Source: Candidatus Cloacimonadales bacterium (GTDB lineage Bacteria > Cloacimonadota > Cloacimonadia > Cloacimonadales > JAFGVF01). Taken from it: a stretch of 64,000 nt of DNA. Under the pieces are notes generated by a model that was not told where the DNA came from, searched no databases, and saw only the letters and a list, made by a program, of their open reading frames with translations. The translations under genes and the position numbers were made by a program. Numbering within the stretch: the stretch's first letter is position 1; each line of letters opens with the position of its first letter. The DNA is taken from the NCBI GenBank assembly GCA_963677495.2, contig CAXXOU010000001.1:416001-480000 (forward strand). The letters are read 5' to 3'. Below are positions 9,437 to 53,953 of the stretch, piece by piece.

Positions 9437-9461
9437 TTATATATCCTTAATTATTTTAAGC

Positions 9462-12400: not shown

Positions 12401-12782
12401 CAATAAGAGTCAGTCCTGCAGGTTTAATTATCATCTGTTGCTCAATCTGCATCTCTTTAGTCTGCAAATCTTTTTGGAAAGGTTCGTAGAAAGTATATGT
12501 ATCTTTACTTTTAAACTTTAAGAAAGTTCTGAAACCTTGAGATGATACAAGGTTATATGCCCAGTTTGCAGGCAAAAACTCCATAATTGGTTTGTGCTTC
12601 CCTTCAATACCCATACTACAAACACATTGTCCTCTATTCACATAGAAGAGCCACATTGGTATACCATCTTTCCCGGCAACACCAGGAAAGAAACTTGAGA
12701 ACAGTTTTGAAGAGTTGTAATCTGCTATTACAAATTCACCTGTTTGATTCAATCTATATTTATTATTGGTAGGATTCATCAC
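9462..12782 (-). CDS. Beta-1,3-glucan phosphorylase, GH161-like (GH94/GH149/GH161 group)
   Basis: ~1100 aa; FSSFFPGVAG..GIPMW.FYVNRGQ, SRKHGDLERDYN, QGNGNYRDVNQNRR, KPNWYDALNGLPG, GWFENESVWLHMEYKY, FVARLSGATAEF; beta-glucanase context. Confidence 0.78.
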   Translation of the reverse strand: MMNPTNNKYRLNQTGEFVIADYNSSKLFSSFFPGVAGKDGIPMWLFYVNRGQCVCSMGIEGKHKPIMEFLPANWAYNLVSSQGFRTFLKFKSKDTYTFYEPFQKDLQTKEMQIEQQMIIKPAGLTLIETNKSLQLRFIVEYSNVPQESYAGLIRELRIENLGDSPISFDLMDGLPLIVPYGIDNNGLKFMRRLFEAFVEVTNYEAKAPFFKGKVEPSDRPDVVRIKKGNFYVGFKKLGDKVELVDPIVDPVKIFGNRGDYKVPEMFLQSSVDELLKGQIFENRLPSAMGIMSVSLAAGSAFTYTSVIGHAESVDELNSLIPTIANPEYIEAKKIENYELIDKLTQNNFICSDVDPFDFYAKQNFLDNALRGGMPYTIEGKNSSTTLHLYSRKHGDLERDYNDYRLTPTKYSQGNGNYRDVNQNRRSDLFFNPDVKDSNIEHFYNLIQLDGFNPLVIKEIRFAISKPKKLNNLLKSYINKEQIELVKDYLMNPFTPGELLSYLKDIQVTSIDNVELFLGELLGLCVKKHDTGYGEGYWTDHWTYNLDLLENYLAVYPEEKVNLLFNKKEYTYYDNPHLVAPRKDKYVIWDGNLMQLNSVVFDDEKEQLLSQRLIDKNKVHTKYGKGEVYYTTLFNKMLCLIINKLASLDGSGVGIEMESDKPNWYDALNGLPGLIGSSLSETLEVKRHIKFLLDSLEKWQDANTSLNIPEELHTFALTLLELLNTNPSPFNYWDNATSLKELYREKTRYGISGKELLISIEQVVALLKLGLERIEDGIEKAWNKTQNVISTYFINKVSKHELIYETDPKGKKVVKRNAKGLACFKALEFELIHLPLFLEGPVHFLRSSQDKSISQKLVRNIRNSGLFDPKLKMYKVNESLADQPMEIGRARTFSPGWFENESVWLHMEYKYMLEVLRNGLYDDFFEDSKSVFIPFLKPEIYGRSILENSSFIVSSGNPDSSIHGNGFVARLSGATAEFISILLHMATGRYPFSVNDEQRLIFKLNPVLPDWIFTKTPKTKKLFIKDEWKEITFSANTFSFMYLGRILITYHNLAKKSTFGEVSVKPVTYTLEFIDGTKKVIQSTFLSGDDAEAVRNRTVKQIDVLLG

Positions 12783-12812
12783 TACCCCCTTATTTATTAT
12801 GAGTTAGAAGAA

Positions 12813-12840
12813 ACCAGCCAATACGATTGTATTGGCTGGT
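12813..12840. terminator. Intra-operon stem-loop
   Basis: ACCAGCCAATAC-gatt-GTATTGGCTGGT, a perfect 12-bp stem. Confidence 0.7.
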
Positions 12841-12847
12841 ATGAAGT

Positions 12848-14722: not shown

Positions 14723-14742
14723 TTTTCCTCCAAGTTATGATT

Positions 14743-17700: not shown

Positions 17701-18285
17701 AGTTGGTGCTGCTATTTCCGGTTCAGCTGGTGGGGGTGGTGGAGTAGTATTCTCTTCCGGAATTACAATATTATCGAAATACAAAACGTTATCCTGGGCT
17801 CTCGCAGCAAAATCAGGTATAATAACTAATCTACTATATGAGTTTCCAATTGATCCTGAAAAATCAAAGTCTATCTGTTCCCACTGATTTACCAATGTAT
17901 TTGCTATCTGGATTTCAACTGGGGTACTTCCTCCTTCAAACTTGATTGCTACTGGACTGATAACCGGTTTGTAAACCATAATACTTACAGTACTATTAGT
18001 CGCATCAAACTCAAACAGATCTATATCATCTGTGTAACAAAGTGCCCAAGGGTTTCCACCACTCTCAGCAGTAAACTGAGCCACTGTAGCAGAAGTATTA
18101 ATTCCTGAGTTATCCGGATTTACCGGGAATGTTATAGCCGGGTTTGTACCATTTTCTGCAACAGTCCATGCCCATGCAGTTCCTGAATCCCCTGATTCAA
18201 AATCAATTGTTGTACTCTGTGCATATAACCCAAAAGTGAGTGATAGGCATATCAAAAGAAAAAAGACGATACCTTTTTTATTCAT
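14743..18285 (-). CDS. Large secreted multi-module protein (CBM-like modules alternating with Ig/cadherin-like spacers, FN3-like C-terminus)
   Basis: Start moved to ATG 18285 (GGAGG RBS); 3x 'GT.F.P.WGQST...YQGT.L' modules, 3x 'DATL.DL..' Ig-like repeats, one module A, one module B. Confidence 0.8.
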   Translation of the reverse strand: MNKKGIVFFLLICLSLTFGLYAQSTTIDFESGDSGTAWAWTVAENGTNPAITFPVNPDNSGINTSATVAQFTAESGGNPWALCYTDDIDLFEFDATNSTVSIMVYKPVISPVAIKFEGGSTPVEIQIANTLVNQWEQIDFDFSGSIGNSYSRLVIIPDFAARAQDNVLYFDNIVIPEENTTPPPPPAEPEIAAPTPDENETDVISIFSDEYTDLAGTDFNPPWGQSTVVTTEVIDTNDMLKYGTFNYQGTQLLGAHDLSSMTHVHIDMWTEDATVVLFSPISATTGEHLVSLTPIATETWNSYDIPLTDFVGLSFIDIHQLKFDGQSGVSPSTIYLDNIYFYSAPILSSDATLNDLLIDGTTVSGFDTNTLTYNVELPEGTTVVPTVTATTTDVNASHVVNDAISLPGTTEVVVTAEDGTTMITYSVVFTVAQPTVLDTPAPTPDELQENVVSVYSDSYTDIAGTNFDPFWGQSTQVSFEDIVGNNVMKYDTFNYQGTELPVQNLSTMEYIHIDLWTPDATVILFSPISQTTGEHLVSLTPINIGSWNSYDIPLSDFTGVAMFDIFQLKFDGQAGVNPSTIYLDNIYFWKTPTVAGTDATLADLQIDGSTVSGFSPTTLIYDVLLDWDTTAVPTVTATTADPLASHTVNDAASLPGTTQVVVTAQNGTDTETYSINFTVDDPPATVTNPAPEPTDAADDVISIYSDSYTDIAGTNFNPWWGQSTQVSFEDVAGNNMMKYDTFNYQGTQLNGNQDLSLMEYIHIDMWTEDATVVLFSPISASTGESLVSLTPITPMAWNSFDIPLSDFTGVSMSDIHQLKFDGQAGVTPSTIYLDNIYFWKTPAAAGTDATLADLRVGGTSIDGFSSIILTYEYELSSGSQRVPTITAITNDPNASYVVNNPASVPGASTIVVTADDGITELTYTINFTVADPAPEAPAPTPTADATNVISMYSDAYQDVTVDTWSAPWDLADVEDELVGADNVKLYTNLVFAGIEFTSQTIDATSLTHFHMDIWTPDDTSAPSEFKVKLVDFGADGSWGGGDDVEHELVFGETTMNTEMWVSLDIPLTDFINLTTTGHLAQLIISGTPNTVYIDNVYFYNDNPLSLGIPQGVTVSVTGTDVTVAWDEVTGASSYIVYESETPDGDFTPVTGGNYNGTSWTGSAGTSRKFYYVKASDTPVR

Positions 18286-18303
18286 TGTCTCCTCCATATC
18301 GCT

Positions 18304-19398
18304 TTAGTTGATTGTTTTTCTTTTATTTAGTTGATAGTTTATGAATGATTGCTTGGGTTCCCTGTTCTCATAGAAAACTCCCCAATTCTTCTCGACTTCA
18401 TTTGCACCTGTTTTCTCAGCTCCACCTTTCCAAGGTTCATCAAATGCTTCAAACAGGAATGTAGTTACTTGATTTTTCTCTATCCACTTATCAAGCATGA
18501 TTAGGAAATGCTCTTGAGCCTTTAGCCCCACATCTCCCTTAATAAGCGTGCCTTGTTGACCATCACCTTTTTTGTCCGGATTGTAGTTGGTTGCCCAACC
18601 TATCTCTCCGAGTATAACTGTTTTGCCATTGTGCTGTTCTTTTACTAAGATAATTTCATTATCAAGCCATTCAATAGAATCATCCAGCTGCTGACTATTC
18701 CATAATGGATAGGCATGCGTTACTATTAGGTCTAATTCTGAAGCAATTCTTTTACTATCAGGTTTGTTCCAAAAATTGTAATCATCAGCAGTAGTAACAG
18801 GTTGAGCAATATTGTTTCTAACAACTCGAATGTACTTTCTCAGGTTTTCTTCTTTCATCTTGTGCCAAGACCAAAATACCTGTGTTTCATTTCCAACATT
18901 TACGATTAAAACTGTTTCTTCATGCTTTCTTGCTAAATCTATTGCACGAAGAACGTTTTTAACATTCTCAGCCTTTTTAAGCTCGTTTTCTGATTCTTTT
19001 TCGAGCCAAACGCCAAGCATGACCTTTATTGGGTAATCATGTTCTTCAATTATTGATATTATTCTTTCAGTATCATCATCTGCATTATAAACACGAATCA
19101 GATTCCAGTGTTGAACAATAATATCTAAATCTTCTTTGATCTCCTCATCTGTTGGTCCGGGTCCCCAAGGAGCTTGTCCTTTTCGATAGCAACCATACGA
19201 TACTGCGTTTCCAATCCATTCATCATTTAAATAAGGACGGAATTCTCTTCTAATGAATGGCTGTTCTTTCTCAACTTTAGAAGCAGATTTTAGCTGCTCT
19301 TCTATTTCAACAAGTGACTTATTTCTTTCGATACTACATGAAACAGTCAGAATAATTAGACATAGTATTGAAAGCAGCTTAAATGTAGTCTTTATCAT
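18304..19398 (-). CDS. GH17 beta-1,3-glucanase, lipoprotein
   Basis: IRVY, VNVGNE, LGEIGWAT, FEAFDEPWK; lipobox LTVSC; start at ATG 19398 overlaps the GH30 stop (ATGA). Confidence 0.88.
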   Translation of the reverse strand: MIKTTFKLLSILCLIILTVSCSIERNKSLVEIEEQLKSASKVEKEQPFIRREFRPYLNDEWIGNAVSYGCYRKGQAPWGPGPTDEEIKEDLDIIVQHWNLIRVYNADDDTERIISIIEEHDYPIKVMLGVWLEKESENELKKAENVKNVLRAIDLARKHEETVLIVNVGNETQVFWSWHKMKEENLRKYIRVVRNNIAQPVTTADDYNFWNKPDSKRIASELDLIVTHAYPLWNSQQLDDSIEWLDNEIILVKEQHNGKTVILGEIGWATNYNPDKKGDGQQGTLIKGDVGLKAQEHFLIMLDKWIEKNQVTTFLFEAFDEPWKGGAEKTGANEVEKNWGVFYENREPKQSFINYQLNKRKTIN

Positions 19399-21083
19399 AG
19401 TTGTATCCGAACAGTCTGCAATGAGTTTGCCTTGATAGTTACCGGGCAAAACCTATCTTCAAGTTGAAGTTTGTAATCTATTGCTTTATCGGAAGTGTTA
19501 AGTACCTGAACACTAAGCAATCCGTCACTATTAATCGTTGCGCATGTATGAATCTTATCATTATCTAATTCCGGTGATAACTTCTCAGTTTGAATAGCAA
19601 CATCTCCGGGTCTAATTGTTTGGCTAAACTGTGATAGGATTTGAAAGATAGGAGTATAATAAACATATTGCTTCTCAGTATCAATCATGATTGGAGCTCC
19701 ACAGAAGTTGCCTACATGATTTGGTCCACCGTCCTTATCTAATACAATATTCCAATCGACCCAACCCTTTACCCAATGATCTATGCTAACAATAATATTT
19801 CTTGCATATCTATGTACTGGTGTATAAGCAGGATGATCGTCAGCATTCACACCTTGCCAAGTCACTGAATATGCCCAATCTGTTGCATTGTCATTCCACC
19901 AAAAATCGTCGTTATCAAACCAGTCTGATTCTTTGAATTTAACAGGATCTAAAACACCATTAGGAGCATCTTTACCTAAGTCATCAATACAACCTTCTGT
20001 GTGAATAATAGAGAACTCAGGAAACTTTGCATGAACTCTATCAAAGACTTCTTCATAAACTTTGAATGTGCTCTCATACCAATGCACTGCGACACCGTAA
20101 ACAAATGGAGATGTTTCTTTATCGGCAAAAATATGGTCAGTCCAATGCTCTAATCCATCACGATTCTGATCATATACTAATAGCTTCATCCTCTTAAATC
20201 CATTCTTATGAAGCTTAGGACCTAAATACTTCTTAACAAAGTCATTTTGTGTCTCCGGAGAGAAGTGCATACTTTCCCACTGCCCATTATTACCATGAGG
20301 TTCATTAACAGGAGTTATACCCCAAAGTTCGACACCTTCATCTTGATAGTGTTGCAAGTACTTGATTAAATAATCAGCATAAGTTTCTTCGAACTCAGGT
20401 TTCAATGAACCTCCGGTACCTTGCCAATTGTTTTCAGTTGCACCCGGAATATACCATTCCTCAATGTCTTTCATCCAAGCCGGTGCTGTCCAGGCAGAAG
20501 CAATAATTCTGAGCTCGTTATCTTTCTGGTCCCGTTTTACGTTAAGAGCTTCCTTAATCATTGGTAATAAATCATAACTATCATCTAAAACAGAGGGGTA
20601 TTTACTCTTATCAAATCCTTTATGGTCTTCATTAATATTGAAAGACTCAAGCTTTGTATCATCTTTTTTAGGAGCGTATGAGTACTTCCCCTCAACACTG
20701 AAATCACATGCTCCTATATGAGTTCTTGTTAAAGTGAAATTAGCTCCTTCTTCACCAAATATCCTCTCCATAACCTGCTTTCTGTGTTCAGGTTTCAGAT
20801 GTGCGAGAACAAACGCTGAAGATTCTGTGAAAGATGTCCCGACCCCATCTATTACTTGTTTCTTTTGACTTGGGAAAACTGTCAGTACGTTACCTGAAGC
20901 TTTCCCATCGACAAACTTTACATTGTCTTGAATAGAGAGCTTATCACCTTCAGCAGATGTTATAATTATCTCTTTAGTTTCACTTGGTTTTACTGTCTTT
21001 TGCTTCATCATACTTGATATATTTGTCACTTGTAGCATTACGATAATAATTAGTACTATCTGAAATTGGCTTGCCCGTTTCAT
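19395..21083 (-). CDS. GH30 glycoside hydrolase (glucosylceramidase-like; probable beta-1,6-debranching glucosidase/glucanase)
   Basis: RTHIGACDFS, SAWTAPAWMK, TPVNEP, IHTEGC, WVDWNIVLD..GGPNH. Confidence 0.88.
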   Translation of the reverse strand: MKRASQFQIVLIIIVMLQVTNISSMMKQKTVKPSETKEIIITSAEGDKLSIQDNVKFVDGKASGNVLTVFPSQKKQVIDGVGTSFTESSAFVLAHLKPEHRKQVMERIFGEEGANFTLTRTHIGACDFSVEGKYSYAPKKDDTKLESFNINEDHKGFDKSKYPSVLDDSYDLLPMIKEALNVKRDQKDNELRIIASAWTAPAWMKDIEEWYIPGATENNWQGTGGSLKPEFEETYADYLIKYLQHYQDEGVELWGITPVNEPHGNNGQWESMHFSPETQNDFVKKYLGPKLHKNGFKRMKLLVYDQNRDGLEHWTDHIFADKETSPFVYGVAVHWYESTFKVYEEVFDRVHAKFPEFSIIHTEGCIDDLGKDAPNGVLDPVKFKESDWFDNDDFWWNDNATDWAYSVTWQGVNADDHPAYTPVHRYARNIIVSIDHWVKGWVDWNIVLDKDGGPNHVGNFCGAPIMIDTEKQYVYYTPIFQILSQFSQTIRPGDVAIQTEKLSPELDNDKIHTCATINSDGLLSVQVLNTSDKAIDYKLQLEDRFCPVTIKANSLQTVRIQL

Positions 21084-21087
21084 AGCA

Positions 21088-23001
21088 CTACATGTTTCCT
21101 TTTTCGGGATTTGCTTTATGACGTTTAGTCAGCTTTTCCCTGATTTCATATACTTTGTCTTCACTTAATGTGTATGTGAAAATTATCCATAAAGCTATAG
21201 CTGAGGTTACGAATGGTATCACTACATCAAAGATTCTTAACTGAAGCAAAGTGTTCTCAGGTTGATTAGCTCCCAAAGCTTGATCAAACTTTACAAACTT
21301 TAGTAATACACCAGTCATTAAACCTGATATTGACATACCTATCTTAACCATCCACCAATAGATAGCTCCAAAAACACCTTCACGTCTCTTATGAGTGTTT
21401 AACTCATCTAAGTCGCAGACATCAGATATCATTGAACCCATGAGTGTGAAGAGAGAACCGGTTCCAAAAGCTACTAACGGAGCAGCAAAGAGTAACCAAT
21501 ATGGGTGAGCAGGATTGTAACCAAACCACTTTACTACGAAACCTAACATTGAAAGGGAGATTGTCAGAAGGAAAGTCTTTCTTTTCCCAATCTTTGTTGC
21601 TATCCAACCGGTTAATGGTATCACTGCAAGTGTTGCTAATGATGTAATAGAACCAAACCAACCCATCAATTTCCCGGCACTTCCATCATTTCCGTTGAAA
21701 AGGTAGTATATCATCACATAGATAGAGAAAGAAACACCTAACTGGAATCCGTTAAATACAAGGAATGTAGCTCCACAAAGCTTCACAAAAGGTTTACATT
21801 TGAAAGTTGTAACAAGACCTGCAAAGAACTCTTGCATATTGGTCCAAAAACCTTTTGTAGCTTTCTCAACCGGTGCAAACACTTTCTTTTCTCTTAAGAA
21901 TATTGCAGGAATAATACCTAACACAGCTACTAACACACCAACGAAAATCGCTAAAACTCTTGCTCCATGCACAGTGTTTCTAAACAAACTACTTGCCATA
22001 ATAGCATAGAACCATGGTACACCCAGCCAAACAAGCTGTCCCATAGTATTTGCAAATGCGTGTAAACGAGTTCGTTCGTGATAATCGTTTGTCATCTCAT
22101 AACCAAAGGCAACAAATGGAGTTGCATAAATCGTATATGCTAAGAAGAAGACGATAGACATTATCAGGAAATAGATAAAGTACTTTGTAAAGAAACTGTT
22201 TTGTTTTCTGAGTTTAAATGATTGCATGGTTGCAATACCGGAACCGGTAACTCCACTCAGTTTTATCTCTATGCTTTTAATCTGTTCTAAATCTAGTTCA
22301 CCGTTATCACTGCCTTTAACTAACTGAGTACCTGCTATAGGTAACTTATAGAGTGATTGAGTTTCACTATCTGCCATCTCTGAAGTAACATTTAGTGCAT
22401 GTGCTTCATTGACTTCGTGGAAAATGACTTGCATCTCTTTATATTCAGGGAAATTAGTATTAAACTCAATCTGTGGGAAGCCGGAAAGATCAGTTAGAGC
22501 ACTCTCTTCTCCCGCCTTAACCTTTGGTCCATATACAATAAATGATATGTCTTTGTTTAACTCAGAATCATACTTTAAGTCAATTCCACCAGCTTCATTT
22601 TTATCAACATCAGCTACTTCTGATGTTACCGTTTGATGTGGTTTTATAGAATCACTTCCAAGAATATCAATATATCCTGAAGGCAACTGCCACATAATAG
22701 CGAAAATCAAACCTGCAAGAAGTGCACCTGCGAAGATAAACGGTCTTCTTCTACCCCAACGTGTTCTTGAGTTATCAGAGATATATCCTACCATAGGATC
22801 TGAGATAGCATCAAATATTCTTGGAATAGAACCAATTAATCCTACTAGCATTACATCCATACCTAATCCAAGGTTAAGAATAACAACCATCGCAGGTAGG
22901 GCTGCAGCTTGAAGGTTGTTTACAAGCATACCTACACCGTATGCAGATTTTTGTTTCAATGAAATCCTATCTTCAGGACGTGTTACATGGTGTTTACTCA
23001 T
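21088..23001 (-). CDS. GPH (MelB-like) MFS sugar transporter with a ~160 aa inserted soluble domain
   Basis: DAISDPMVGYISD..RTRWGRRRPF, DYHERTRL, D.CD.DEL...RREG; 637 aa against ~460 typical. Confidence 0.9.
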   Translation of the reverse strand: MSKHHVTRPEDRISLKQKSAYGVGMLVNNLQAAALPAMVVILNLGLGMDVMLVGLIGSIPRIFDAISDPMVGYISDNSRTRWGRRRPFIFAGALLAGLIFAIMWQLPSGYIDILGSDSIKPHQTVTSEVADVDKNEAGGIDLKYDSELNKDISFIVYGPKVKAGEESALTDLSGFPQIEFNTNFPEYKEMQVIFHEVNEAHALNVTSEMADSETQSLYKLPIAGTQLVKGSDNGELDLEQIKSIEIKLSGVTGSGIATMQSFKLRKQNSFFTKYFIYFLIMSIVFFLAYTIYATPFVAFGYEMTNDYHERTRLHAFANTMGQLVWLGVPWFYAIMASSLFRNTVHGARVLAIFVGVLVAVLGIIPAIFLREKKVFAPVEKATKGFWTNMQEFFAGLVTTFKCKPFVKLCGATFLVFNGFQLGVSFSIYVMIYYLFNGNDGSAGKLMGWFGSITSLATLAVIPLTGWIATKIGKRKTFLLTISLSMLGFVVKWFGYNPAHPYWLLFAAPLVAFGTGSLFTLMGSMISDVCDLDELNTHKRREGVFGAIYWWMVKIGMSISGLMTGVLLKFVKFDQALGANQPENTLLQLRIFDVVIPFVTSAIALWIIFTYTLSEDKVYEIREKLTKRHKANPEKGNM

Positions 23002-23013
23002 TTGATGTCCTCA

Positions 23014-26000
23014 CTATTTTGTAAGATATATATTATCAAAGTAAAGGTATCCAAATAGCATTGTAGCAACACCATCTGATGGATTCCACAGACCCAGATA
23101 TTTTGTATTATTAAAATTCACTGCAGAGAATACACTTAATGGGATCTCATATTTTAACCAATCTCCAGACACTTCCGGAGTATATGAAGAGATATTAACC
23201 TCTGTCTGACCACCATTTGTATCTTCAAACTTAACTCCTAAGCTGTTTACATCTGGCATAGCTGATTTATTCAGAAAGAATACAAGTGACTGATATTCTG
23301 AGATATCCTGACCTGCTGAACCGAAATCGAAAGCAATACCGCCCCAGCCGTTCCCTAAATCAGTGAAGTTAACTGATAAGACATAACTACCATCTACAGG
23401 TGTAACCATTGTACTTTCAGTATCTGCTTCACCCGAGTTTCCACTCCAGTCGGCACTGTTGATAATTCCGACATATGATAGTGTTGGGTCTGTATGAGTT
23501 TCACTATATATACCCATAGTATCATCGGATGAGCCTGATGCTGTTATGGTTGCAGTATCGTTATTTTCATTATTATTACTATCTGTATATGATGCGGTCA
23601 GAACATTTCCGACTGCAATGGATATCGTATCAGTTGCATCATCTGTAGTTCCAAAATTCAGATTTGCAGTTCCATTTCCTGTTCCGTCGAGAACAACATC
23701 AATCTGTATTGTATCAGTCCCATTATCGATTGAAACTGTAACTGTTGTATTGGGTGCGTTATCATCGAGTACAGAGACTACAGCACTAGTTGCATCTTCC
23801 TGATAACTATCAGCATCAAATCCAACACTGCTATTACCTGCACTTTCTTCCCAATATATATCATCTATACCAAATGAACACTGTGTTCCATTCTCTTCAA
23901 CGATTGTGAAAGCATAGCTAATTTGACTAAGATCACAACTTCCGGTCACTTCATCGATTGGTATTACTGCTTGTCCCCATTCTCCATCTCTAACGAGTCC
24001 ATATGCTGTTTGGTTAGCAGGGAAGAATACATAACTCTCATTACTACCTGAGTCTTGTATACCTATTTTGAAAGTAACATCAGCAGGCATCTTTATCATG
24101 AATTTTATGGATCCACCGGCAAAGTTTGAGAAATCCTGTGGATTATTTGCCATTACTCCTGCTCCAAACCAGCCAACACCGGCTGTTTCCCAAGATATAA
24201 CATTTTGTCCTTCGTAAGGTGACATTGTGCCTGCAGTTAAAGTGTTTTCCCACACAAATATCTCTGCATCTTCACCAATTGTAAAGCCATCAGTGATTGG
24301 GGTGTTGTCAGTAAAAACACCAAATGTTCCAAGTATAGGACCGGCAGATTGGATTGTTGCACTAACTGTCTTTGTGCTTGAAGAGCTATCTGTATAGCTA
24401 GCTTCTATTGTCCCACCGGCAACAATTTCAATTGTATCGGTTGCATCATCTGTTGTACCGAAGTATAAAGCAGAAGAACCACTTCCATTCGCATCAAGAG
24501 TCACATCAACACTAATTGTATCTGTTCCATTGTTAACTGAAACGCTAACAGTGCTATTGACAGCTCCTGTGTCAGTCACAGATATAGCAGCTCCAGTTTC
24601 ATCTATATTATATGAAGATTTATCAAAACTGATAGAACTATGGGTCGCTCCACCACCATCAAAATAGATATCATCGACAGCAAACTGGCATTGAGCACCA
24701 CTATCATCTTTTATCATGAAAGTGTAACTTACTAGTTCCAGATTAACATTTCCAACAAGTTGTTCCATTGGAATTGATGCTTGTCCCCACTCACCATCTC
24801 TAATTAAACCAAAAGCGTCTGTACTGGCAGGGAACATCACAAAATTCTCATTCCCATCTGTATCATTAATACCTATCTGAAAACTAACATCAGCTGGTAT
24901 CTTAACTGCAAAGTTTAGATTGCCACCTGCAAAAGTACTCAAATCTAAAGGTTGATTTGATTGAATTCCTGCACCATACCAAGCCATACCTGTTGTTGTA
25001 AAGGAGATGACATTAGAACCTTCAAATGGTAATAGGGTGCCTTGTGTAAGTGTTTGCTCCCATACATATATTTCAGCATCTGCACCAACGATTATACCAT
25101 CATCAACCGGAGTCGTATCAGTGAATATTCCAAATGATTCAATCGGTTCGTCATTTACTTCACCTTGATATGCTCTGATCCAATCGACATACATACTCTG
25201 AGGCCATTCTGTATTTTCTGAAGGAGCTCCACCATAGCCACCACCAACAGCTATGTTAATTAGAAGATAAAAGTCGTTGAGGAACTCATCCATTGTTTCA
25301 ACATCTATCAACTTTGTGAAATATGTAATGTTATCTATTCTTCCTATAATTCTTTGGGCATCCCATTCCACTTCAAAGACATGGTAATCATCGGCTAAAG
25401 ATTCACTGAATTCTCTTAATCCTTGTGATGATTGATGAGATTCAATCTCTTCATCCCACCAGTGAATAGTACAAATTGAAGTCTTATCATCATGATAAAG
25501 AGGACTCATCTCCATTATATCTATTTCTCCACAATAGGGCCAACTTATGTCATCAAAGTTTGAACCAAGCATCCAGAAAGCAGGCCACATTCCATCACCC
25601 TTTGGTGGTTTTATACGTGCCTGTACTTTACCATATTTCATCGTAAACTTGTTCTTTGTATTTAATCTACCCGAAGTAACAGATCCATCTCTCTTACCTG
25701 GTGCTATATAGTTATCGGAATCAAATCTTGCAGTTAGGACCAGATTCCCATTCTCAACTTTTACATTATCTTCGGAATCTGTATAGTTCTGCCACTCGTC
25801 ATTACCCCAACCATCATTTTGATTTCCATAACCATATCCAAGGTCATAATTCCATTTGGCAGGATCGGGAAAAGTACCGTCCTGATTGAATTCATCTGAC
25901 CAAATCAACTGGTAGTCAATTGGATTAGTAGAATCCGGTACTTTATCCGGTTCGGTTATTGTATCACAGCCGACTAAGAAGATTGCAGTCAAAATAGTCG

Positions 26001-26034
26001 CAAATATAGAAAAAAACATCACCTTTCGTATCAT
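23014..26034 (-). CDS. GH16 laminarinase lipoprotein with several C-terminal CBM-like modules
   Basis: Lipobox LVGC; WSDEF, GWGNDEWQ.Y, WPAFWMLG, GEIDIME catalytic motif; two copies of module D and a further CBM-like C-terminal domain. Confidence 0.92.
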   Translation of the reverse strand: MIRKVMFFSIFATILTAIFLVGCDTITEPDKVPDSTNPIDYQLIWSDEFNQDGTFPDPAKWNYDLGYGYGNQNDGWGNDEWQNYTDSEDNVKVENGNLVLTARFDSDNYIAPGKRDGSVTSGRLNTKNKFTMKYGKVQARIKPPKGDGMWPAFWMLGSNFDDISWPYCGEIDIMEMSPLYHDDKTSICTIHWWDEEIESHQSSQGLREFSESLADDYHVFEVEWDAQRIIGRIDNITYFTKLIDVETMDEFLNDFYLLINIAVGGGYGGAPSENTEWPQSMYVDWIRAYQGEVNDEPIESFGIFTDTTPVDDGIIVGADAEIYVWEQTLTQGTLLPFEGSNVISFTTTGMAWYGAGIQSNQPLDLSTFAGGNLNFAVKIPADVSFQIGINDTDGNENFVMFPASTDAFGLIRDGEWGQASIPMEQLVGNVNLELVSYTFMIKDDSGAQCQFAVDDIYFDGGGATHSSISFDKSSYNIDETGAAISVTDTGAVNSTVSVSVNNGTDTISVDVTLDANGSGSSALYFGTTDDATDTIEIVAGGTIEASYTDSSSSTKTVSATIQSAGPILGTFGVFTDNTPITDGFTIGEDAEIFVWENTLTAGTMSPYEGQNVISWETAGVGWFGAGVMANNPQDFSNFAGGSIKFMIKMPADVTFKIGIQDSGSNESYVFFPANQTAYGLVRDGEWGQAVIPIDEVTGSCDLSQISYAFTIVEENGTQCSFGIDDIYWEESAGNSSVGFDADSYQEDATSAVVSVLDDNAPNTTVTVSIDNGTDTIQIDVVLDGTGNGTANLNFGTTDDATDTISIAVGNVLTASYTDSNNNENNDTATITASGSSDDTMGIYSETHTDPTLSYVGIINSADWSGNSGEADTESTMVTPVDGSYVLSVNFTDLGNGWGGIAFDFGSAGQDISEYQSLVFFLNKSAMPDVNSLGVKFEDTNGGQTEVNISSYTPEVSGDWLKYEIPLSVFSAVNFNNTKYLGLWNPSDGVATMLFGYLYFDNIYLTK

Positions 26035-26555: not shown

Positions 26556-27611
26556 ATGAGTAGTAAAACACCAAAATATCTCAGCATTAAAGAGATTATT
26601 AAAGAGAGTATCAGAACCGGTGAAATTACCGGTAAACTTCCGGGTGAAAGAGTCATGGCAAAGATGTATGATGTTTCATACATGACCATTAGAAGAGCTG
26701 TTACTGAGTTAGTCGAAGAAGGAATCCTTCACAAGTTTACAACCAAAGGTACATTCGTCAGTCATAGCAAAATGACCCCTAAAATCACCCATAATATCGG
26801 TTTTTTCCTTGATTCAGGTATTAAGGAGGGTATATCAAGCCCCTACTACTCTCTGGTCTTTAATGCCCTTGAAAAAGAGGTTAAGCAAAAAGGTTACAAT
26901 CTGGTTCTCTTCTCAGATCCGGATGATCTTAATCCACTTAACAACCAGAAGAAGATTGATGGTGTCATTATCTGCTGCTTTCCGAGAATTGAAGGCAAGA
27001 TTCAAGAACTAAAGAAGATGCTACCAATAGTTTTACTTGACAACTTAGCATCAGATAAGTCTATTCCTTCAGTAACTTTAGACAACTTTAACAGCTCAAG
27101 TGAAGCAGCTAATCATCTCTTCAAACTCGGACACAAAAGAATAGGTTTTATTTCAGGTTTACTCGACTCTGATATCTGCAATGAAAGGCTTACAGGGTAC
27201 ACTTCCGCATTGATAGCTAATCAACTATCTGTTGAGCAAGAATTAATTTATAAAGGTGATTACTCCTATGAATCGGGTGAGTTTGGTGCTGAAAACCTAC
27301 TCTCACTAAAAACTCCGCCCACAGCAATCATGTGCGCAAACGATTCTATGGCTATTGGCGCAATGAAAGTTATTCGAGAAAAGGGTTACAGCATTCCTGA
27401 AGACATCAGTGTGATTGGTTTTGATGATATCAAAGTTTCATCAATGGTATTTCCTTCTCTTACAACGATTACCGCCCCCATTGAACGCATTGCCGAAAGA
27501 GCTATCGGGATGCTTTTAGCTATGATAGATGGGCTTGACCTTGACTATCAGCATGTGATATTACCTGCTCATCTTACAGAGAGAAATTCTTGTGCAAAAG
27601 TAAAGAATTAG
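26556..27611 (+). CDS. GntR-HTH / LacI-type sugar-binding transcriptional regulator (AraR-like architecture)
   Basis: LPGER..YDVSYMTIRRAV.ELV.EG winged HTH; GHKRIGFI, PTAIMCAND, IPEDISVIGFDD. Confidence 0.93.
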   Translation: MSSKTPKYLSIKEIIKESIRTGEITGKLPGERVMAKMYDVSYMTIRRAVTELVEEGILHKFTTKGTFVSHSKMTPKITHNIGFFLDSGIKEGISSPYYSLVFNALEKEVKQKGYNLVLFSDPDDLNPLNNQKKIDGVIICCFPRIEGKIQELKKMLPIVLLDNLASDKSIPSVTLDNFNSSSEAANHLFKLGHKRIGFISGLLDSDICNERLTGYTSALIANQLSVEQELIYKGDYSYESGEFGAENLLSLKTPPTAIMCANDSMAIGAMKVIREKGYSIPEDISVIGFDDIKVSSMVFPSLTTITAPIERIAERAIGMLLAMIDGLDLDYQHVILPAHLTERNSCAKVKN

Positions 27612-28250: not shown

Positions 28251-28257
28251 TTTTCAC

Positions 28258-28667: not shown

Positions 28668-28721
28668 GCTAAAATATTTATCCGTTGTTTTATATGCTAA
28701 TGAATCAAAAAGGAGCCGAAT

Positions 28722-31700
28722 ATGACGAAACATTATTGCTCTTATTCAATAAAACGGTTTATAATTACTTTAACTATAATGCTATTTATTAGCATTGCTT
28801 TTGCTTCAAATTCAGTAGAAACCTACAGAGATGAACATGGCTGGAAACTGAAAGTTGATAATGAAGACTATTTTGTGAGAGGAATGGTTTGGGGTTACAC
28901 CCCGATTGGAGAGAACTATTCTTACAATCTTTGGGCTAATTCAGATGAGAAAATTAAGAAGATTCTTGATTACGAATGCAATCTGATGAAAAAAGCCGGT
29001 GTAAACACAATCAGACAATTTGGTGTTATTCCGCCTAAGTGGGTTACTTATATTTATCGTGAACATGGAATCATGACTATGGTGAATCATCTCATGGGTA
29101 GATATGGCTACAATGTTGATGGTAAGTGGCATGTCTGGACTAAATATGATGATCCACGGACTCGAGAAGTTTTAATCAATGACTTTGTAGAGATGGTTGA
29201 GAAATTCAAAGATGTTGAAGGTGTCATTGCTTTTGCTCTCGGTAATGAGAGTAATTATGGACTTGAGTGGTCCAGTTTTGAGATTGAAAACCTTCCGGAA
29301 GGTGAACGCTATCAGGAAAAAGCTACGCATCTCTATACTCTCTTCAATGAAGCTATGAGACAAGCTAAAATGGTCGATAGCACGCACCCTTATCTCATTG
29401 TTAACGGTGATATTCAGTACTTAGATATAATAAAAGAAAAGTGTACTGATATGGATATTCTCGGTGTAAATTCATACCGTGGTGTTAGCTTCACTGATAT
29501 GTGGCAGCGTGTTCACGATGAAGCTGATTTGCCAATCTTGCTTACAGAGTTCGGTAGTGATGCCTTTAATGCTCTTACTCATAAAGAGGAGCAGGAAGGT
29601 CAAGCATATCTGGTTAAGGGTAACTGGGATGAGATTTACAACAAAAGCTATGGCAATGGTGAAGAGGGAAACGCTATTGGTGGTTGCCAGTTTGAATGGC
29701 GCGACGAATGGTGGAAATACAAGCAAACCGAGAATCTTGAAGTTCAGGATACTAATGCATCATGGAGCAATGGTGGCTATTCATTTGACTTTGTGCATGG
29801 CGTAAACAACATGAATGAGGAGTGGTTTGGGATCTGCCGTTTAGCAGGTCCAAATGATGATGGTGTCTATGAAGCTATCCCTCGTATGGCTTATGATGTA
29901 TTAACAGAAGTTTGGAAGATAGATCCTTATAAATTAGATAAAGTTGAGATGAATGATAAGCTACAATCCATTGATATGGATTTCCTTAAGATGAAAAGTA
30001 GCTTAAGAACTCTGACAAAAGATATGCATGAGCAGAAAGCTTTTAGATTCACAGGAGGTAAGTTAGAAGGTGACTTAGCACTTACAGGTGAATCAGAAGC
30101 TGTTGAGAATAACGGCAAAAGTGGATTAGAGTTTACAAATGGTGAAAAGCTATTCCTTGATTTTGCATTTAATCCTACTGGTAGAATCGAAGGTAAGTTC
30201 ACTCTTAACATTCTTGGAAATGTAGTTGACCTCCCAATGGAGCAATACTACGGAAAGCGTGGTGACTCATATATCTCTGTAGCAACAGAAGAAAATGATC
30301 AAGGCATCGATGTACTCTCAACTAAAGAGATTACTGATAACGAACGCATTGAAATATATAGTTTTGAAGCTAAATATAAAGCTGACATGTTCGACTTTAC
30401 TGCATTTTATCATGTACCTCGATTCCATTGGGGCTATGAAGGTGATTTTTTTGGCCTTATGAGAGAAGCTACTGATATGGAAGGGATGGATATCTGGAAT
30501 GCAAAAGCACCGTTTGGTGTTGAGTTTGCTGGTAAGAAATCACTTAATGGTTTAACAGTTGTAACCGGACCGGAAGTCTATTGGGGTGCTAACCCTAAAG
30601 CTATTGTGAAATATGACTTTGATTTTTTGGGCTCTGAATGGACTTTTATCCACTCAGAAGATTTCTCCCAAGCTGATGCTTCTGCAACTGCAACTGAAGC
30701 AACTGAAAAGGCTACTCGCCAAACAGCACTCTCTTTTGAAGCAGAAATGGGTGCAGGTATTACTCTTCAAGCCGGTTACTTGATGTCCGGTACTGAAAAG
30801 ATAGATGAAGAATATTCCTATATGGATGATAACGAGCTCTACAAAGATGAGATAGAATTCAAGGATACTCAAGCTGCAAAAGCTAAGCTTTCCTTTAGCT
30901 TGGGTTCTACTCTCATAGACCTATCGGCTAACTATTCAGGTTTGGTAGCTGATGCAGGTGAAGCCTTGGATGAAAGAGATACCACAATGCCATACTCTGA
31001 TTTAGGTAACAAGATAGTATATGAAGCAGGAATGTTAATTCCTATCGGGAATGTCTGGTTACTTCCAAGAGCTATGTATAGAACTAATCTGCTTGAATCA
31101 ATGGAAGCTACTGATGCATACATAGACGGAACATCTTTCTATCCCGGTACAACTCCAAGAAATAGAGATAGCGATCCGTTTGCTGTGTTAGGAAACCGTG
31201 AAACCATATCAGGAGAATTCTTCCTTACTTATGACCCGACTCCTGCCAGCTACTTCTATGTTTGGAATAGAGACGAAAAAGAGGATGCTAAGTTTGCCTT
31301 TACTATAGGTGGTAACTATACTGAATATAAAGAAGATACTGATGCTCATCTTTTTTACTATCAGGAAGGTGAAACTAATGCACCATTCGGTAGCGGATTG
31401 CCTGCTGAGGAAGTATGGTTAGGGAAAAGTATTATTATAATGAATCCAAACCCCAACTTCAAAAGTGTTATTACTTTGGAGACTGGTAAGCAACAATCTA
31501 CCGGTAATCCTGATGGGGATGCTACAGAATTTTACTCAATAGAGACTAAGTTCCTAATCAACAAAACTCATTATATTCAAGCATATGCAAAGAAGGATGC
31601 TTGGGGACCTTACGATTGGTACAGACAATTTAATATCATTTATCCATACCAATACAAATTAGATTATTCATTCCTAATTGATAATCTCTTCAATATGGAA

Positions 31701-31829
31701 AAATCAAGTAGATTAGGTGTAAAAGCACTCTTTAGAGAGTTGGATGAGAGCTCTCCTATCAATGAAGGTGGTGGAATTGATAATGACTATGAGTTCCAAG
31801 CCGGTATCTACTACAGCATAGGATTTTAA
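28722..31829 (+). CDS. Clan GH-A (GH2 TIM-barrel-like) glycoside hydrolase fused to a predicted outer-membrane beta-barrel
   Basis: Signal peptide; GVNTIR, GNESNY (acid/base), LTEFGSD (nucleophile), NEEWFG; C-terminal ~590 aa with amphipathic strands ending YEFQAGIYYSIGF. Confidence 0.75.
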   Translation: MTKHYCSYSIKRFIITLTIMLFISIAFASNSVETYRDEHGWKLKVDNEDYFVRGMVWGYTPIGENYSYNLWANSDEKIKKILDYECNLMKKAGVNTIRQFGVIPPKWVTYIYREHGIMTMVNHLMGRYGYNVDGKWHVWTKYDDPRTREVLINDFVEMVEKFKDVEGVIAFALGNESNYGLEWSSFEIENLPEGERYQEKATHLYTLFNEAMRQAKMVDSTHPYLIVNGDIQYLDIIKEKCTDMDILGVNSYRGVSFTDMWQRVHDEADLPILLTEFGSDAFNALTHKEEQEGQAYLVKGNWDEIYNKSYGNGEEGNAIGGCQFEWRDEWWKYKQTENLEVQDTNASWSNGGYSFDFVHGVNNMNEEWFGICRLAGPNDDGVYEAIPRMAYDVLTEVWKIDPYKLDKVEMNDKLQSIDMDFLKMKSSLRTLTKDMHEQKAFRFTGGKLEGDLALTGESEAVENNGKSGLEFTNGEKLFLDFAFNPTGRIEGKFTLNILGNVVDLPMEQYYGKRGDSYISVATEENDQGIDVLSTKEITDNERIEIYSFEAKYKADMFDFTAFYHVPRFHWGYEGDFFGLMREATDMEGMDIWNAKAPFGVEFAGKKSLNGLTVVTGPEVYWGANPKAIVKYDFDFLGSEWTFIHSEDFSQADASATATEATEKATRQTALSFEAEMGAGITLQAGYLMSGTEKIDEEYSYMDDNELYKDEIEFKDTQAAKAKLSFSLGSTLIDLSANYSGLVADAGEALDERDTTMPYSDLGNKIVYEAGMLIPIGNVWLLPRAMYRTNLLESMEATDAYIDGTSFYPGTTPRNRDSDPFAVLGNRETISGEFFLTYDPTPASYFYVWNRDEKEDAKFAFTIGGNYTEYKEDTDAHLFYYQEGETNAPFGSGLPAEEVWLGKSIIIMNPNPNFKSVITLETGKQQSTGNPDGDATEFYSIETKFLINKTHYIQAYAKKDAWGPYDWYRQFNIIYPYQYKLDYSFLIDNLFNMEKSSRLGVKALFRELDESSPINEGGGIDNDYEFQAGIYYSIGF

Positions 31830-31840: not shown

Positions 31841-32464
31841 ATGAAAAGATATAAAATACTTATTATAATATCTGTTTTGGCATTGTTACTTATCGCAGGT
31901 TGTGATGTTAAGAATGGTATAACCTCCACAACTATGGAATTACCTACAGGTAATACTTTAGACCTTTATTCAACAGATGAAGGTGTACATCCTAATACTG
32001 ATATTCTTGATAATCCGGAAAATCCATTCGCAAAGGCAAGCATCAGTATGGACAATGTATGGGAATTCAATGATGAAGCCCCATCTGCAATCTCAAGATT
32101 CTATCTTTGGGGTACTATGCTTGCTAAGATTCCTATGGGTGAACACCAGTACTTTACTGCTAAATCACTGCATGAAATCTACACTGAAAGTGGAAGCATC
32201 AATGCAAAAGAACAAACGAAGAAAGCTTATAGAGCACTTTTAGACCATTTCTACGACTCAGTAACGTGGTGGAATGCCTGGTGGATAGATGAAGATACTT
32301 ACTATGCAGTTATCCTTCGTGATATGGTTGGCGAAGCTATGTATGACCCATCAGAGATGAATCTTATGCCATTGTATACTGACCCTGCCCTCGCACTTGC
32401 TGATCTGAGTGAATGGGGATATGTATATGACTTTGAAGCTAATAAGTTAACAAAAAGGCAATAA
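31841..32464 (+). CDS. Hypothetical lipoprotein, aromatic-rich
   Basis: Lipobox IAGC; GGAGG RBS; tightly coupled to both neighbours. Confidence 0.8.
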   Translation: MKRYKILIIISVLALLLIAGCDVKNGITSTTMELPTGNTLDLYSTDEGVHPNTDILDNPENPFAKASISMDNVWEFNDEAPSAISRFYLWGTMLAKIPMGEHQYFTAKSLHEIYTESGSINAKEQTKKAYRALLDHFYDSVTWWNAWWIDEDTYYAVILRDMVGEAMYDPSEMNLMPLYTDPALALADLSEWGYVYDFEANKLTKRQ

Positions 32465-32465
32465 A

Positions 32466-34250
32466 ATGAATAGAATAATTATCCTCATATTTGCATTAAC
32501 TCTAATATCCGGCTTAGCAGCCGAGATTGGTGATGTGATTTGGGAAGAGAACTTCAACAACCTCGAAAACTGGATTATCGAAACCGGTAATGGTTCTTGG
32601 GGTTGGGGAAACGGTGAACTTGAGTGTTATTTAGAAGGTAATGTTGATATTACTGAGATTCCGGGAGAACCCGGTAACAATGCATTGAGAATTACAGCAC
32701 GTCAAGAATCAGGCCCACATATTACTGACCAATGGGGTAATCCTTTGAACTACACATCAGGTAGATTGAATACTAAATCAAAAGTATCTATTCAATATGG
32801 TGTAATTGAAGCAAGAGTCCTAATTCCGGATATTGATTTAGGTGGTTGGCCTGCTGTTTGGTTGCTTGGAACAAGTAATTATGGTTGGCCTCGTTGTGGT
32901 GAAATTGATATGATGGAAATGGGGAGCAGACAAGCTTTCCGTAACCTGCATGATGCCCATAACGGAGGAAACAATCAAGATAATGCTAATGTAAATCAAG
33001 CTGTTGGAGCTAATGCAATCTTCTATCATGAAGATTCAATTACTCCTGAGAATCCTACCGGTGCAGCAAGTACATCATGGGATCCTAATGACGAGAATTG
33101 TCGTCCATATTATAGCTATGATCCTCCGTTAACAGGAAGGTTTATTACGTATAGAGCTTATTGGGATAATGCTAGCCTTCGTTTTACTGTGATAGATAAC
33201 GGAGTTGAGCATGATCTTTATGAAGAAGCACTATATTTTGATGAGCATTCAGCTGAGTTTCAAAACCCATTCTATTTGGTAACTAACTTTGCGATTGGTG
33301 GTTATTTCACAGATGCTCAAACTCTCGATGGTTCCGGAGCTCCTATTTCAATGTCATTCCCGGCTGAAATGTATGTTGATTATATTAAAGTTATGGAATG
33401 GAATGATATGGGGGAAGTTAATGTTGGACCTCCAACTTTCCAATATGACACTTTTGGTATTTTTACTGACCAAACAGAGACCTATAATAGTCTTCAAGTT
33501 GGCGTAGATGCAGAGATATATGTTTGGGAAGGTACATTGTCAGAAGGCTCCATTCCTCCTTATGAAGGTGAGAATGGTGTGACCTGGGCTACAACCGGAA
33601 CCGGATGGTTTGGTGCAGGAGTTATGTCTGCCCAGCCAACAAACTTGTTCAACTTTGGGGATGGACACCTCAAGTTCCATATCAATATCCCCGCAAACGT
33701 GACATTTAAGATTGGTATTATCGATGCCTGGGGGAATCAGTCATATGTTGATTTCCCAGCCCATCAGACAGTTTATGGTCTTGAACGGAACGGACAATGG
33801 GGTCAAGCAGCTATACCTGTAGAAGATATTCGAGGCGAGTTTATTGACCTTAGAATGCTTAGTTATGAGTTTGTTATACTCGAAGAATCCGGAATACAAT
33901 GCGAGTTTGCTATTGATAATATCTATTGGGATGGTGGGCTTGTTTCTAATGATGAAAACACAAACCCAATTGTGAACTTTGATTTGAAGCAAAACTATCC
34001 GAATCCATTTAATCCTACAACCACTATCTCATACAGTTTGGATAACACAAGCTATGTCGAGATAGAAATCTACAATCTTAAAGGACAGAAGATTAAGACG
34101 TTAGTGTCTAAAAGCCAAACAAAAGGCAGTCACTCTGTCGAATGGAACGGTAAAGATGTAAGTGAACACACAGTAAGTTCTGGTGTTTATTTCTATAAAT
34201 TGAATGTTAATAATCAATCTACTATGAAGAAGATGATTTTACTTAAATAA
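32466..34250 (+). CDS. GH16 laminarinase + CBM-like module D + T9SS-type C-terminal domain
   Basis: GWGNGELE.Y, YTSGRL, WPAVWLLG, GEIDMME; QNYPNPFNPTT...KKMILLK. Confidence 0.92.
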   Translation: MNRIIILIFALTLISGLAAEIGDVIWEENFNNLENWIIETGNGSWGWGNGELECYLEGNVDITEIPGEPGNNALRITARQESGPHITDQWGNPLNYTSGRLNTKSKVSIQYGVIEARVLIPDIDLGGWPAVWLLGTSNYGWPRCGEIDMMEMGSRQAFRNLHDAHNGGNNQDNANVNQAVGANAIFYHEDSITPENPTGAASTSWDPNDENCRPYYSYDPPLTGRFITYRAYWDNASLRFTVIDNGVEHDLYEEALYFDEHSAEFQNPFYLVTNFAIGGYFTDAQTLDGSGAPISMSFPAEMYVDYIKVMEWNDMGEVNVGPPTFQYDTFGIFTDQTETYNSLQVGVDAEIYVWEGTLSEGSIPPYEGENGVTWATTGTGWFGAGVMSAQPTNLFNFGDGHLKFHINIPANVTFKIGIIDAWGNQSYVDFPAHQTVYGLERNGQWGQAAIPVEDIRGEFIDLRMLSYEFVILEESGIQCEFAIDNIYWDGGLVSNDENTNPIVNFDLKQNYPNPFNPTTTISYSLDNTSYVEIEIYNLKGQKIKTLVSKSQTKGSHSVEWNGKDVSEHTVSSGVYFYKLNVNNQSTMKKMILLK

Positions 34251-53952: not shown

Positions 53953-53953
53953 G

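Follow-up and report, generated by a model that had tools for sequence, protein, structure and literature searches.

The fusion protein and its two domains

The stretch analysed here, which we call the window, comprises 64,000 nucleotides of a Candidatus Cloacimonadales bacterium (GenBank assembly GCA_963677495.2, contig CAXXOU010000001.1, positions 416,001 to 480,000 of the forward strand), and our subject is a gene at 28722–31829 (+) that encodes a glycoside hydrolase (GH) domain fused to an outer-membrane-type beta-barrel. The gene has an ATG start, encodes 1035 amino acids (aa), and is the sole long open reading frame (ORF) in that interval. An earlier reading made from the letters of the DNA alone (the sequence-only reading) had described a signal peptide, a clan GH-A domain with the motifs GNESNY and LTEFG, a helical linker at about 29920–30040, and a barrel that ends in GIYYSIGF and is far larger than the 12-strand domain of an autotransporter; all of these are present in the translation or the structural model, including the fusion of a GH-A domain with intact catalytic residues to a barrel of such size (Table 1). 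Signal peptides, here and in the relatives discussed below, were assigned by eye or by simple pattern, and 111 of 114 full-length homologues are without a lipobox-like motif in their first 40 aa. The full-length model reached a mean predicted local distance difference test score (pLDDT) of 78.5 and a predicted template-modeling score (pTM) of 0.69. The second linker helix (residues 419–437, 19 residues) ends three residues before barrel strand 1 according to DSSP. This architecture is not a chance product, because 4209 database proteins match the full protein at E ≤ 0.001 (7998 candidates scored) and N175, E176, E276, and many residues of the barrel are invariant across a 43-sequence alignment. 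The best 120 matches share 51–80% identity over ~95–100% of the length, and the names given by sources, where any, are “hypothetical protein” or “beta-galactosidase.”

Table 1. Features of the fusion gene and its neighbors, in positions of the window.
Feature	Position	Strand	Remarks
Sec-type signal peptide, residues 1–28 (...SIAFA/SNS)	28722..28805	+	A-x-A pattern by eye; without lipobox
Clan GH-A (beta/alpha)8 glycoside hydrolase domain, GH158-like, residues 29–399	28806..29918	+	
N175-E176, predicted catalytic acid/base pair in GNESNY (residues 174–179)	29244..29249	+	
E276, predicted catalytic nucleophile in LTEFG (residues 274–278)	29547..29549	+	
Linker, residues 400–440, helices 407–415 and 419–437	29919..30041	+	DSSP of full-length and domain models
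Outer-membrane beta-barrel domain, residues 441–1035 (~595 aa)	30042..31826	+	Long antiparallel strands in model
Family hallmark loop, strands 7–8, aromatic-rich (FYHVPRFHWGYEGDFFGL...DIWNAKAPFG)	30405..30515	+	Densest invariant run in barrel
C-terminal strand AGIYYSIGF, BAM-type beta-signal	31800..31826	+	Ends in Phe
Lipoprotein, 207 aa, lipobox LIAG/C	31841..32464	+	Next gene after fusion; no known family
GH16-like protein with type IX secretion system (T9SS) sorting domain (secreted/surface glucanase)	32466..34250	+	Same operon
T9SS cargo, 455 aa	34313..35680	+	Last of run; homologues in 31/80 related loci
GntR-type helix-turn-helix/LacI-type sugar-binding regulator	26556..27611	+	Upstream; homologues in 25/80 related loci
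Divergent beta-1,3-glucan operon	7598..26034	-	

The N-terminal domain has the features of clan GH-A, namely a (beta/alpha)8 (TIM) barrel, an Asn-Glu acid/base pair after strand 4, and a Glu nucleophile after strand 7. N175, E176, and E276 are invariant in 43/43 aligned sequences, and also in 16/16 sequences that include clades of 36% identity and enzyme-only relatives. Pfam gave a marginal match to Glyco_hydro_2_C alone (E 1.3e-4), and an NCBIfam scan of the 1035-aa protein gave no match. Foldseek with the full-length model returned GH157 first (9fz9, E 3e-12), followed by GH158 (6pal, 9p26, 9oro, E ~1e-11 to 1e-10). The nearest solved-structure relative by sequence is GH158(Pro) (phmmer E 0.11), which was the sole match below E 0.001 when the family profile was compared with structures (E 1.2e-5, profile positions 157–285, ~130 positions), and its GNES and TEFG motifs align with the catalytic motifs of the fused domain. 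In BuGH158, the catalytic residues are described as N136/E137 with E220 as the nucleophile (PMC7157763). The solved GH158 and GH157 enzymes (BuGH158 6pal, GH158(Pro) 9oro/9p25, LaGH157 9fz9) are, however, only distant sequence relatives of the fused domain, which has family-specific invariant inserts (after the acid/base; NNMNEEWFG), is without their Ig-like domain, and is joined to a barrel. Judged by these alignments, the fused domain is best called “GH158-like” rather than a close GH158, and it is a putative beta-1,3-glucanase mainly on account of its gene context.

The barrel modeled alone (residues 400–1035, 37 sequences) gave a pLDDT of 85.3 and a pTM of 0.78, with 28 strands by DSSP. 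The hairpin at residues 517–537 is poorly predicted and variable, being shortened or absent in barrel-only relatives and in a distant clade; since it appears to be a variable loop insert, the core of the modeled barrel probably consists of 26 strands. The top Foldseek matches are AlgE (4b61, E 2.6e-9), BtuB, and ChiP, with the AlgE match spanning only ~300 residues of the larger barrel and tied with many porins, and matches of the sugar-porin type span ~250–310 of its ~597 residues. The highest query TM-scores belong to MtrB (6r2q, 0.42) and LptD (5ixm, 0.38), and the matches that span most of the barrel are ushers and MtrB. Every structural match listed is an outer-membrane barrel, and the soluble beta-sandwiches that the sequence-only reading had set against its own proposal were not seen. 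A Sec signal (by eye), an even number of strands (from the model), and an aromatic C-terminal beta-signal are all those of a barrel inserted by the BAM machinery; 33 of the 41 homologues read to the stop codon end in Phe, and F1035 is conserved in ≥90% of sequences.

In hmmscan, no Pfam family matched the barrel even at E ≤ 10, and at that threshold there was no sequence match to autotransporter, TpsB, usher, or other known barrel families. Four barrel relatives likewise gave just stray matches (E ≥ 0.005), besides the C-terminal OmpA and Ig-like domains of one of them (P0253). DUF6029, the identity of an ESM Atlas cluster matched at 0.93 besides unnamed clusters, was not confirmed: the DUF6029 match in the own genome is a different 478-aa frame, and hmmscan was unsupportive.

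The hallmark loop between strands 7 and 8 carries the motif FYHVPRxHWGYEGDFFGL...DIWNAKAP; its length is fixed at 34 residues in fused and barrel-only forms, and its pLDDT is low. In the model it is predicted to lie on the extracellular/lumen side, where the long loops are, and it is a candidate sugar-binding or constriction loop. All eight turns of 2–3 residues connect an even to an odd strand, a pattern that places both the chain's entry into strand 1 and its C-terminal end on the periplasmic side.

Occurrence, neighboring genes, and separate forms

The fusion family spans >4,200 protein clusters from many phyla, with a barrel for which neither Pfam nor NCBIfam has a model. Scanning a single genome of each species for the family pattern gave at least 595 stretches, of which at least 586 were confirmed; 80 loci were kept from the latter, and the counts of related loci given here are taken over these 80. 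They belong to Cloacimonadota (closest, 80%), Delongbacteria, Gemmatimonadota, Desulfuromonadales, Myxococcota, Fibrobacteraceae, Ignavibacteriaceae, and Bacteroidales, as well as to many Gammaproteobacteria (Woeseiaceae, Lentisalinibacter orientalis, Thiothrix, Leucothrix) and Flavobacterium, including F. chungnamense. The own genome holds a single copy of the fusion gene. In the own phylum, the barrel profile was found in 34 of 201 sampled genomes (28/151 high-quality genomes; 18/61 genera), with one copy per carrier and frames of 1035–1071 aa unless cut by contig ends. A homologue of GH16, GH3, or GH30 lies within ±8 kb in 44 of the 46 related loci of ≥14 kb. TonB-receptor, Plug, and SusD families were absent from 55 picked neighboring ORFs of 10 loci, including those of cultured Flavobacterium, a genus whose polysaccharide utilization loci (PULs) normally carry SusC/D. 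Some carriers are in culture: the fusion occurs in Flavobacterium chungnamense and Lentisalinibacter orientalis, and the barrel-only form in a Marinobacterium isolate.

In the window, the fusion gene heads a run of four same-strand genes separated by gaps of 11, 1, and 62 nt, with no terminator-like site found between them, in agreement with the sequence-only reading, which had placed it first in its operon. The architecture of the GntR/LacI regulator upstream also adjoins the fusion gene in two related loci (L047 and L011). The divergent operon encodes a GH16 lipoprotein, an MFS_2 transporter, GH30, a GH17-like lipoprotein, two surface proteins, GH161, and GH3. The beta-1,3-glucan phosphorylase GH161 (9462–12782, -; 1106 aa; E 6e-221 to GH161A, PDB 9qqk) had no Pfam match and is without a signal peptide, as is GH3 (7598–9436). 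Because these two enzymes, being signal-less, are cytoplasmic, oligosaccharides must cross both membranes, and the pair implies, as far as sequence can tell, that imported laminari-oligosaccharides are used by phosphorolysis in the cytoplasm. TonB-receptor, Plug, and SusD families had no match on the 34 ORFs of the window that were scanned; the whole own genome has one TonB-receptor-barrel match (elsewhere), no SusD_RagB, and six TonB_C.

Two observations on these neighbors may be added. The MFS_2 sugar transporter (21088–23001, -; 637 aa) has a hydrophilic insert of ~170 residues (~110–280) between membrane segments that has no Pfam match. The N-terminal motif VDFE.G..G..W.W.V.ENG.NPP is common to three proteins, at 12848–14722 (-), 14743–18297 (-), and 34313–35680 (+), of 624, 1184, and 455 aa, two of them with T9SS tails, with homologues in 24, 26, and 31 of the 80 loci; these surface proteins may represent an unnamed family of glucan-binding domains.

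The barrel and the enzyme also occur as separate proteins. Against 1.84 billion representative proteins, the barrel profile had only 481 matches at E ≤ 0.001, and the family is therefore compact. Barrel-only relatives such as P0143, P0151, P0156, and P0170 have 575–625 aa and consist of a signal peptide and the barrel, without the linker; about fifty such clusters were listed, from marine Gammaproteobacteria including the Marinobacterium isolate. Eight metagenome loci of one barrel-only lineage share a layout of SBP_bac_5/Opp-type ABC importer, LacI regulator, barrel, and GH16, in which GH16 comes directly after the barrel in 8/8, while LacI precedes the barrel in the 7/7 loci reaching that far and the ABC importer does so in the 5/5 that extend to it; these eight loci have no GH158-like match. 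Further arrangements are CBM4_9 plus enzyme plus barrel (P0186) and two enzyme domains (P0133). One protein of the representative library (P0253) has the barrel without the enzyme, followed by C-terminal Ig-like and OmpA peptidoglycan-binding domains.

Enzyme-only relatives are numerous; they measure ~405–460 aa, share 50–63% identity with the enzyme domain, and end after the linker, which some retain at the C-terminus. Of the 36 examined on contigs of ≥10 kb, 29 show no motif resembling a lipobox, precomputed Pfam hits include a T9SS tail for none of the 36, and two resemble fragments. In one locus (L050), an enzyme-only gene is followed by a convergent regulator, with no barrel. Since the enzyme-only forms have every family-specific motif that is seen in fused domains from the same phylum, repeated fusion or fission of enzyme and barrel is suggested.

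The small lipoprotein encoded after the fusion gene goes with the fused form. Its homologue starts ≤400 nt downstream in 47 of the 64 related loci with ≥700 nt downstream, and none was found in three enzyme-only loci (L049, L050, L055) or in the eight barrel-only loci. Most of the other 17 loci belong to a distant Bacteroidota-type clade, and in nine of the 17 the next gene encodes a different lipoprotein of 437–603 aa whose Cys is closely followed by acidic residues, as is typical of surface-exposed glycan-binding proteins. Three of these larger lipoproteins were scanned, with two weak Ig-like matches and one weak CBM30-like match. The small lipoprotein itself had no Pfam or NCBIfam match and no usable ESM Atlas match, and its profile found in the PDB only its signal-peptide region (YfiB, E 0.12) and a chance HtpG fragment; a profile comparison of its family with the 471-aa lipoprotein after the fusion gene in Flavobacterium showed likeness in the signal peptide alone. 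A predicted complex of barrel and lipoprotein gave an ipSAE of 0.56 (median of three runs; best control 0.00), which is classed as “weak support”: the mark was passed by 116 of 157 solved complexes and 2 of 215 mismatched pairs, and among those passing it at ≤0.60 were only 18 of the 157 solved complexes and both of the mismatches. In these runs, at least 91% of contacts agreed and the pLDDT of the partner was at least 84.

In one related locus, that of Lentisalinibacter orientalis, the fusion gene and its lipoprotein are immediately followed by a bona fide GH158 (L024:11858–13642; E 2.4e-99 to GH158(Pro), 9oro), with the true GH158 and the GH158-like domain in one locus. A study of Woeseiaceae places GH158 in laminarin PULs (PMC12175321), by which it probably means the true GH158 encoded after the module in loci of this kind.

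Proposed passage of glucan across the outer membrane

The fusion protein shares single features with several known systems. SusC/SusD of Bacteroidota combine a TonB-dependent transporter (TBDT) with a lid lipoprotein. By contrast, the barrel described here is without a plug, a TonB box, or a TonB-receptor signature (neither Plug nor TonB_dep_Rec was found on the fusion protein), it has ~26 strands rather than 22, an enzyme is fused to it, and its lipoprotein of ~200 aa lacks the ~500-aa length and the Pfam signature of SusD, which is built on tetratricopeptide repeats (TPR). Sugar porins (LamB, ScrY, ChiP, CymA) have 14–18 strands, are mostly trimeric, and have no enzyme or lipoprotein partner, and their family signatures (LamB/ScrY, OprB, ChiP/OprD) found no match on this barrel at E ≤ 10. 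LptD/LptE and MtrB, both with 26 strands and a partner protein inside the barrel, are similar in strand number. The LptE lipoprotein (in the ~190-aa class) plugs LptD, and LptD has an N-terminal periplasmic domain before its barrel, as the enzyme precedes the barrel here. The likeness lies in barrel size and the small lipoprotein partner, whereas there is no LptD family match or sequence similarity to either system, and the context is one of sugar catabolism rather than of lipopolysaccharide or electron transfer. Type Va autotransporters with an enzyme passenger, such as the esterase EstA, have in common with the fusion the Sec signal, the N-terminal enzyme, the alpha-helical linker (here with a helix directly before strand 1), and the C-terminal barrel; they have 12 strands, however, compared with ~26–28 here, no autotransporter family matched, and the present barrel also occurs alone in sugar-uptake operons.

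We give about an even chance to the explanation that the protein is an outer-membrane channel for fragments of beta-1,3-glucan (laminarin), with ~26 strands and an N-terminal GH158-like retaining endo-glucanase, in which import precedes cutting. GH16 enzymes, T9SS-secreted and lipid-anchored, would nick the polymer outside the cell. Chains or large oligosaccharides would then traverse the barrel with no energy supplied by TonB and with the invariant aromatic-rich loop as a guide, and the tethered enzyme, which most probably sits at the mouth on the periplasmic side, would trim them to sizes that the MFS transporter accepts, for delivery to the cytoplasmic GH161 phosphorylase and GH3. The small lipoprotein may serve the fused form as an accessory subunit, such as a gate, plug, or clamp. 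Of this account, the analysis shows the domain architecture, the class of fold, the intact catalytic residues, their conservation, the neighboring genes, and the separate occurrence of the parts, and infers that sugar passes through the barrel, on which side the enzyme lies, which substrate it prefers, and what the lipoprotein does. Taken by itself, the barrel is probably a glucan uptake channel: no TonB receptor or SusD was found in the window, yet oligosaccharides must reach the cytoplasm. To this extent, the claim of the sequence-only reading that the protein may take the place of SusC holds, as the fusion stands at the importer position; the “cut-and-import” order that came with it was not borne out. 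A closed barrel that serves only as an anchor, the other outcome that the sequence-only reading had set against its proposal, is unlikely because the barrel-only relatives have no enzyme to hold and lie in a regulator–importer–barrel–GH16 operon, and because of the size of the barrel and its invariant aromatic loop.

Given an uptake channel, it is likely that the enzyme faces the periplasm. The enzyme outside the cell, as the sequence-only reading had it, is disfavored by the periplasmic start of strand 1 (from turn parity), by enzyme-only relatives that mostly have plain Sec signals, and by the OmpA domain of P0253, and a periplasmic enzyme is the more economical reading because of these same findings and the existence of both enzyme-only and barrel-only forms. 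The surface alternative, in which the linker helix runs through the lumen and an enzyme above the barrel cleaves laminarin and feeds its own pore, is nevertheless consistent with several observations. The order enzyme–helix–barrel is that of classical autotransporters, and the 19-residue helix (~28 Å) could span the lumen; the long conserved loops able to dock a domain lie on the outer side; the full-length pTM hints at a fixed enzyme–barrel interface; and P0186 carries an N-terminal CBM4_9, which is commoner on surface enzymes. The larger downstream lipoproteins of the Bacteroidota-type clade, with their acidic residues after the Cys and weak Ig-like or CBM30-like matches, would also suit a surface role, and BuGH158 is surface-anchored in its authors' model (PMC7157763). 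Beyond the position of strand 1, the enzyme-only relatives that mostly carry plain Sec signals have the same family motifs, and the invariant low-confidence loops of the enzyme are kept in enzyme-only forms and hence are not barrel-docking elements. The organism, moreover, already exports glucanases by the T9SS from the same operon, and we know of no mechanism that passes a 370-residue TIM barrel through a self-encoded barrel. On balance, we regard a surface enzyme as unlikely.

Apart from the points in favor of a surface enzyme, several others weigh against the periplasmic-enzyme channel proposed here. Where the function of a single-chain barrel of 24–26 strands is known (ushers, LptD, MtrB), the barrel transports or encloses macromolecules and is not a sugar pore. 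The eight barrel-only loci, being one lineage, count as one event; among the 36 enzyme-only relatives, 7 do have a motif resembling a lipobox, and frameshifts in the assemblies may have created some of the apparent “enzyme-only” genes. The fused domain is only 23% identical (pairwise E 2e-13) to the true GH158 of the Lentisalinibacter locus, and structure alone was rejected as proof of beta-1,3 specificity since GH2 glucuronidases tie with GH157 and GH158. The low score of the predicted barrel–lipoprotein complex belongs here as well.

The size of the barrel bears on another possibility, namely that it only exports or anchors a glucanase, the adjacent GH16 in the case of the barrel-only operons, while sugars enter elsewhere. 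Large barrels are usually macromolecule translocons, and the best full-span matches are ushers and MtrB; the domain order resembles that of autotransporters, and the next gene in the barrel-only loci is a GH16 with a Sec signal. On the other hand, no other outer-membrane importer was found among the scanned ORFs, yet oligosaccharides must reach GH161 and GH3, and no known secretion barrel family matches even at a permissive threshold. The barrel-only operon is laid out as for sugar uptake (regulator, ABC importer, barrel), and sugar binding accounts better for the invariant aromatic-rich loop. We judge a display or secretion device improbable, although as a way of displaying the enzyme it is still to be reckoned with. 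It is harder still to credit that a porin with a periplasmic hydrolase exports and trims a self-made beta-glucan. The alginate, Pel, poly-N-acetylglucosamine (PNAG), and cellulose systems do pair an outer-membrane porin with a periplasmic glycoside hydrolase, and AlgE is the top Foldseek and VIA match; but that match is partial and shared with many porins, no glycosyltransferase, synthase, or TPR-scaffold match was found on the 34 window ORFs or the 55 neighbors, and the neighbors are catabolic (GH16, GH3, GH17, GH30, GH161, sugar importers, LacI-type repressors). We consider this reading extremely improbable.

A bolder version of the uptake channel is a TonB-independent importer driven by hydrolysis, in which entire or almost entire laminarin chains would thread the barrel, cutting by an endo-acting or processive glucanase tethered at the periplasmic exit would block back-diffusion as a ratchet, and the lipoprotein would act as a gate; we rate it as rather improbable. 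GH158(Pro) is described as processive (PMC13195107), and if the fused domain were so too, exit cutting might, speculatively, rectify entry. The terms “outer membrane,” “porin,” and “beta-barrel” never occur in the GH158(Pro) paper (PMC13195107).

Full-text literature searching found no paper on the fusion family, nor on any glycoside hydrolase joined to an outer-membrane barrel. The “atypical PUL” chu_1276–chu_1280 of Cytophaga hutchinsonii is described as SusC/D-independent and genetically required for growth on its polymer, and as encoding outer-membrane proteins (one predicted to be barrel-like), an SGBP-B-like binding protein, and an endoglucanase (PMC12016534). It is likened to the present system by description only: its substrate is cellulose, not laminarin, and no enzyme–barrel fusion is reported in the portion of that source drawn on here. 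A fusion of a transporter with a carbohydrate-active enzyme has been described in Formosa (PMC6246565).

The present family occurs regularly in beta-1,3-glucan loci without a TonB-dependent transporter. Laminarin is one of the largest marine polysaccharide carbon pools, and to our knowledge its passage across the outer membrane outside the SusC/D paradigm is poorly understood. If the barrel is an uptake route, genome-based predictions of laminarin consumers that count SusC/D or TBDT genes miss a marker, and an enzyme–channel fusion, if true, would offer a compact module for engineering glycan uptake. At the outer membrane, a hydrolysis-powered importer, if true, would add a third glycan route to those of diffusion porins and TonB/SusCD, and it could account for the “selfish” uptake of laminarin by bacteria that have no SusC/D. 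As cultured carriers exist, the channel question is open to direct testing.

Further features of the window

The 1.1-kb spacer upstream of the fusion gene (27612–28721) contains two tandem units of ~200 bp (27819–28046 and 28020–28246) that are 88–95% alike, an array of CACTGTG with 11-nt periodicity and imperfect inverted repeats (28292–28406), and a CCACG-rich array at ~27650–27760. These repeats could be binding sites of the regulator or the remnant of a mobile element. On this spacer, Rfam gave only sub-threshold matches to microRNA families on the hairpin-rich repeat, which were taken as chance. A scan for the sigma-70 consensus found no clear promoter just upstream of the fusion gene, and sites overall were not in excess (32 vs. 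26.7 ± 5.6 in shuffles). The stretch was found in four sequencing runs, all from one study and sample, and no RNA run was among them.

Just past the glucan operon, 35862–37976 (+) encodes a sigma-54 activator that has a TPR region at its N-terminus but no receiver domain, and further T9SS cargo genes follow. An IS21-type pair, consisting of an integrase-core/Mu-transposase-C protein and an IstB-like ATPase, lies at 52420–54685 (+).

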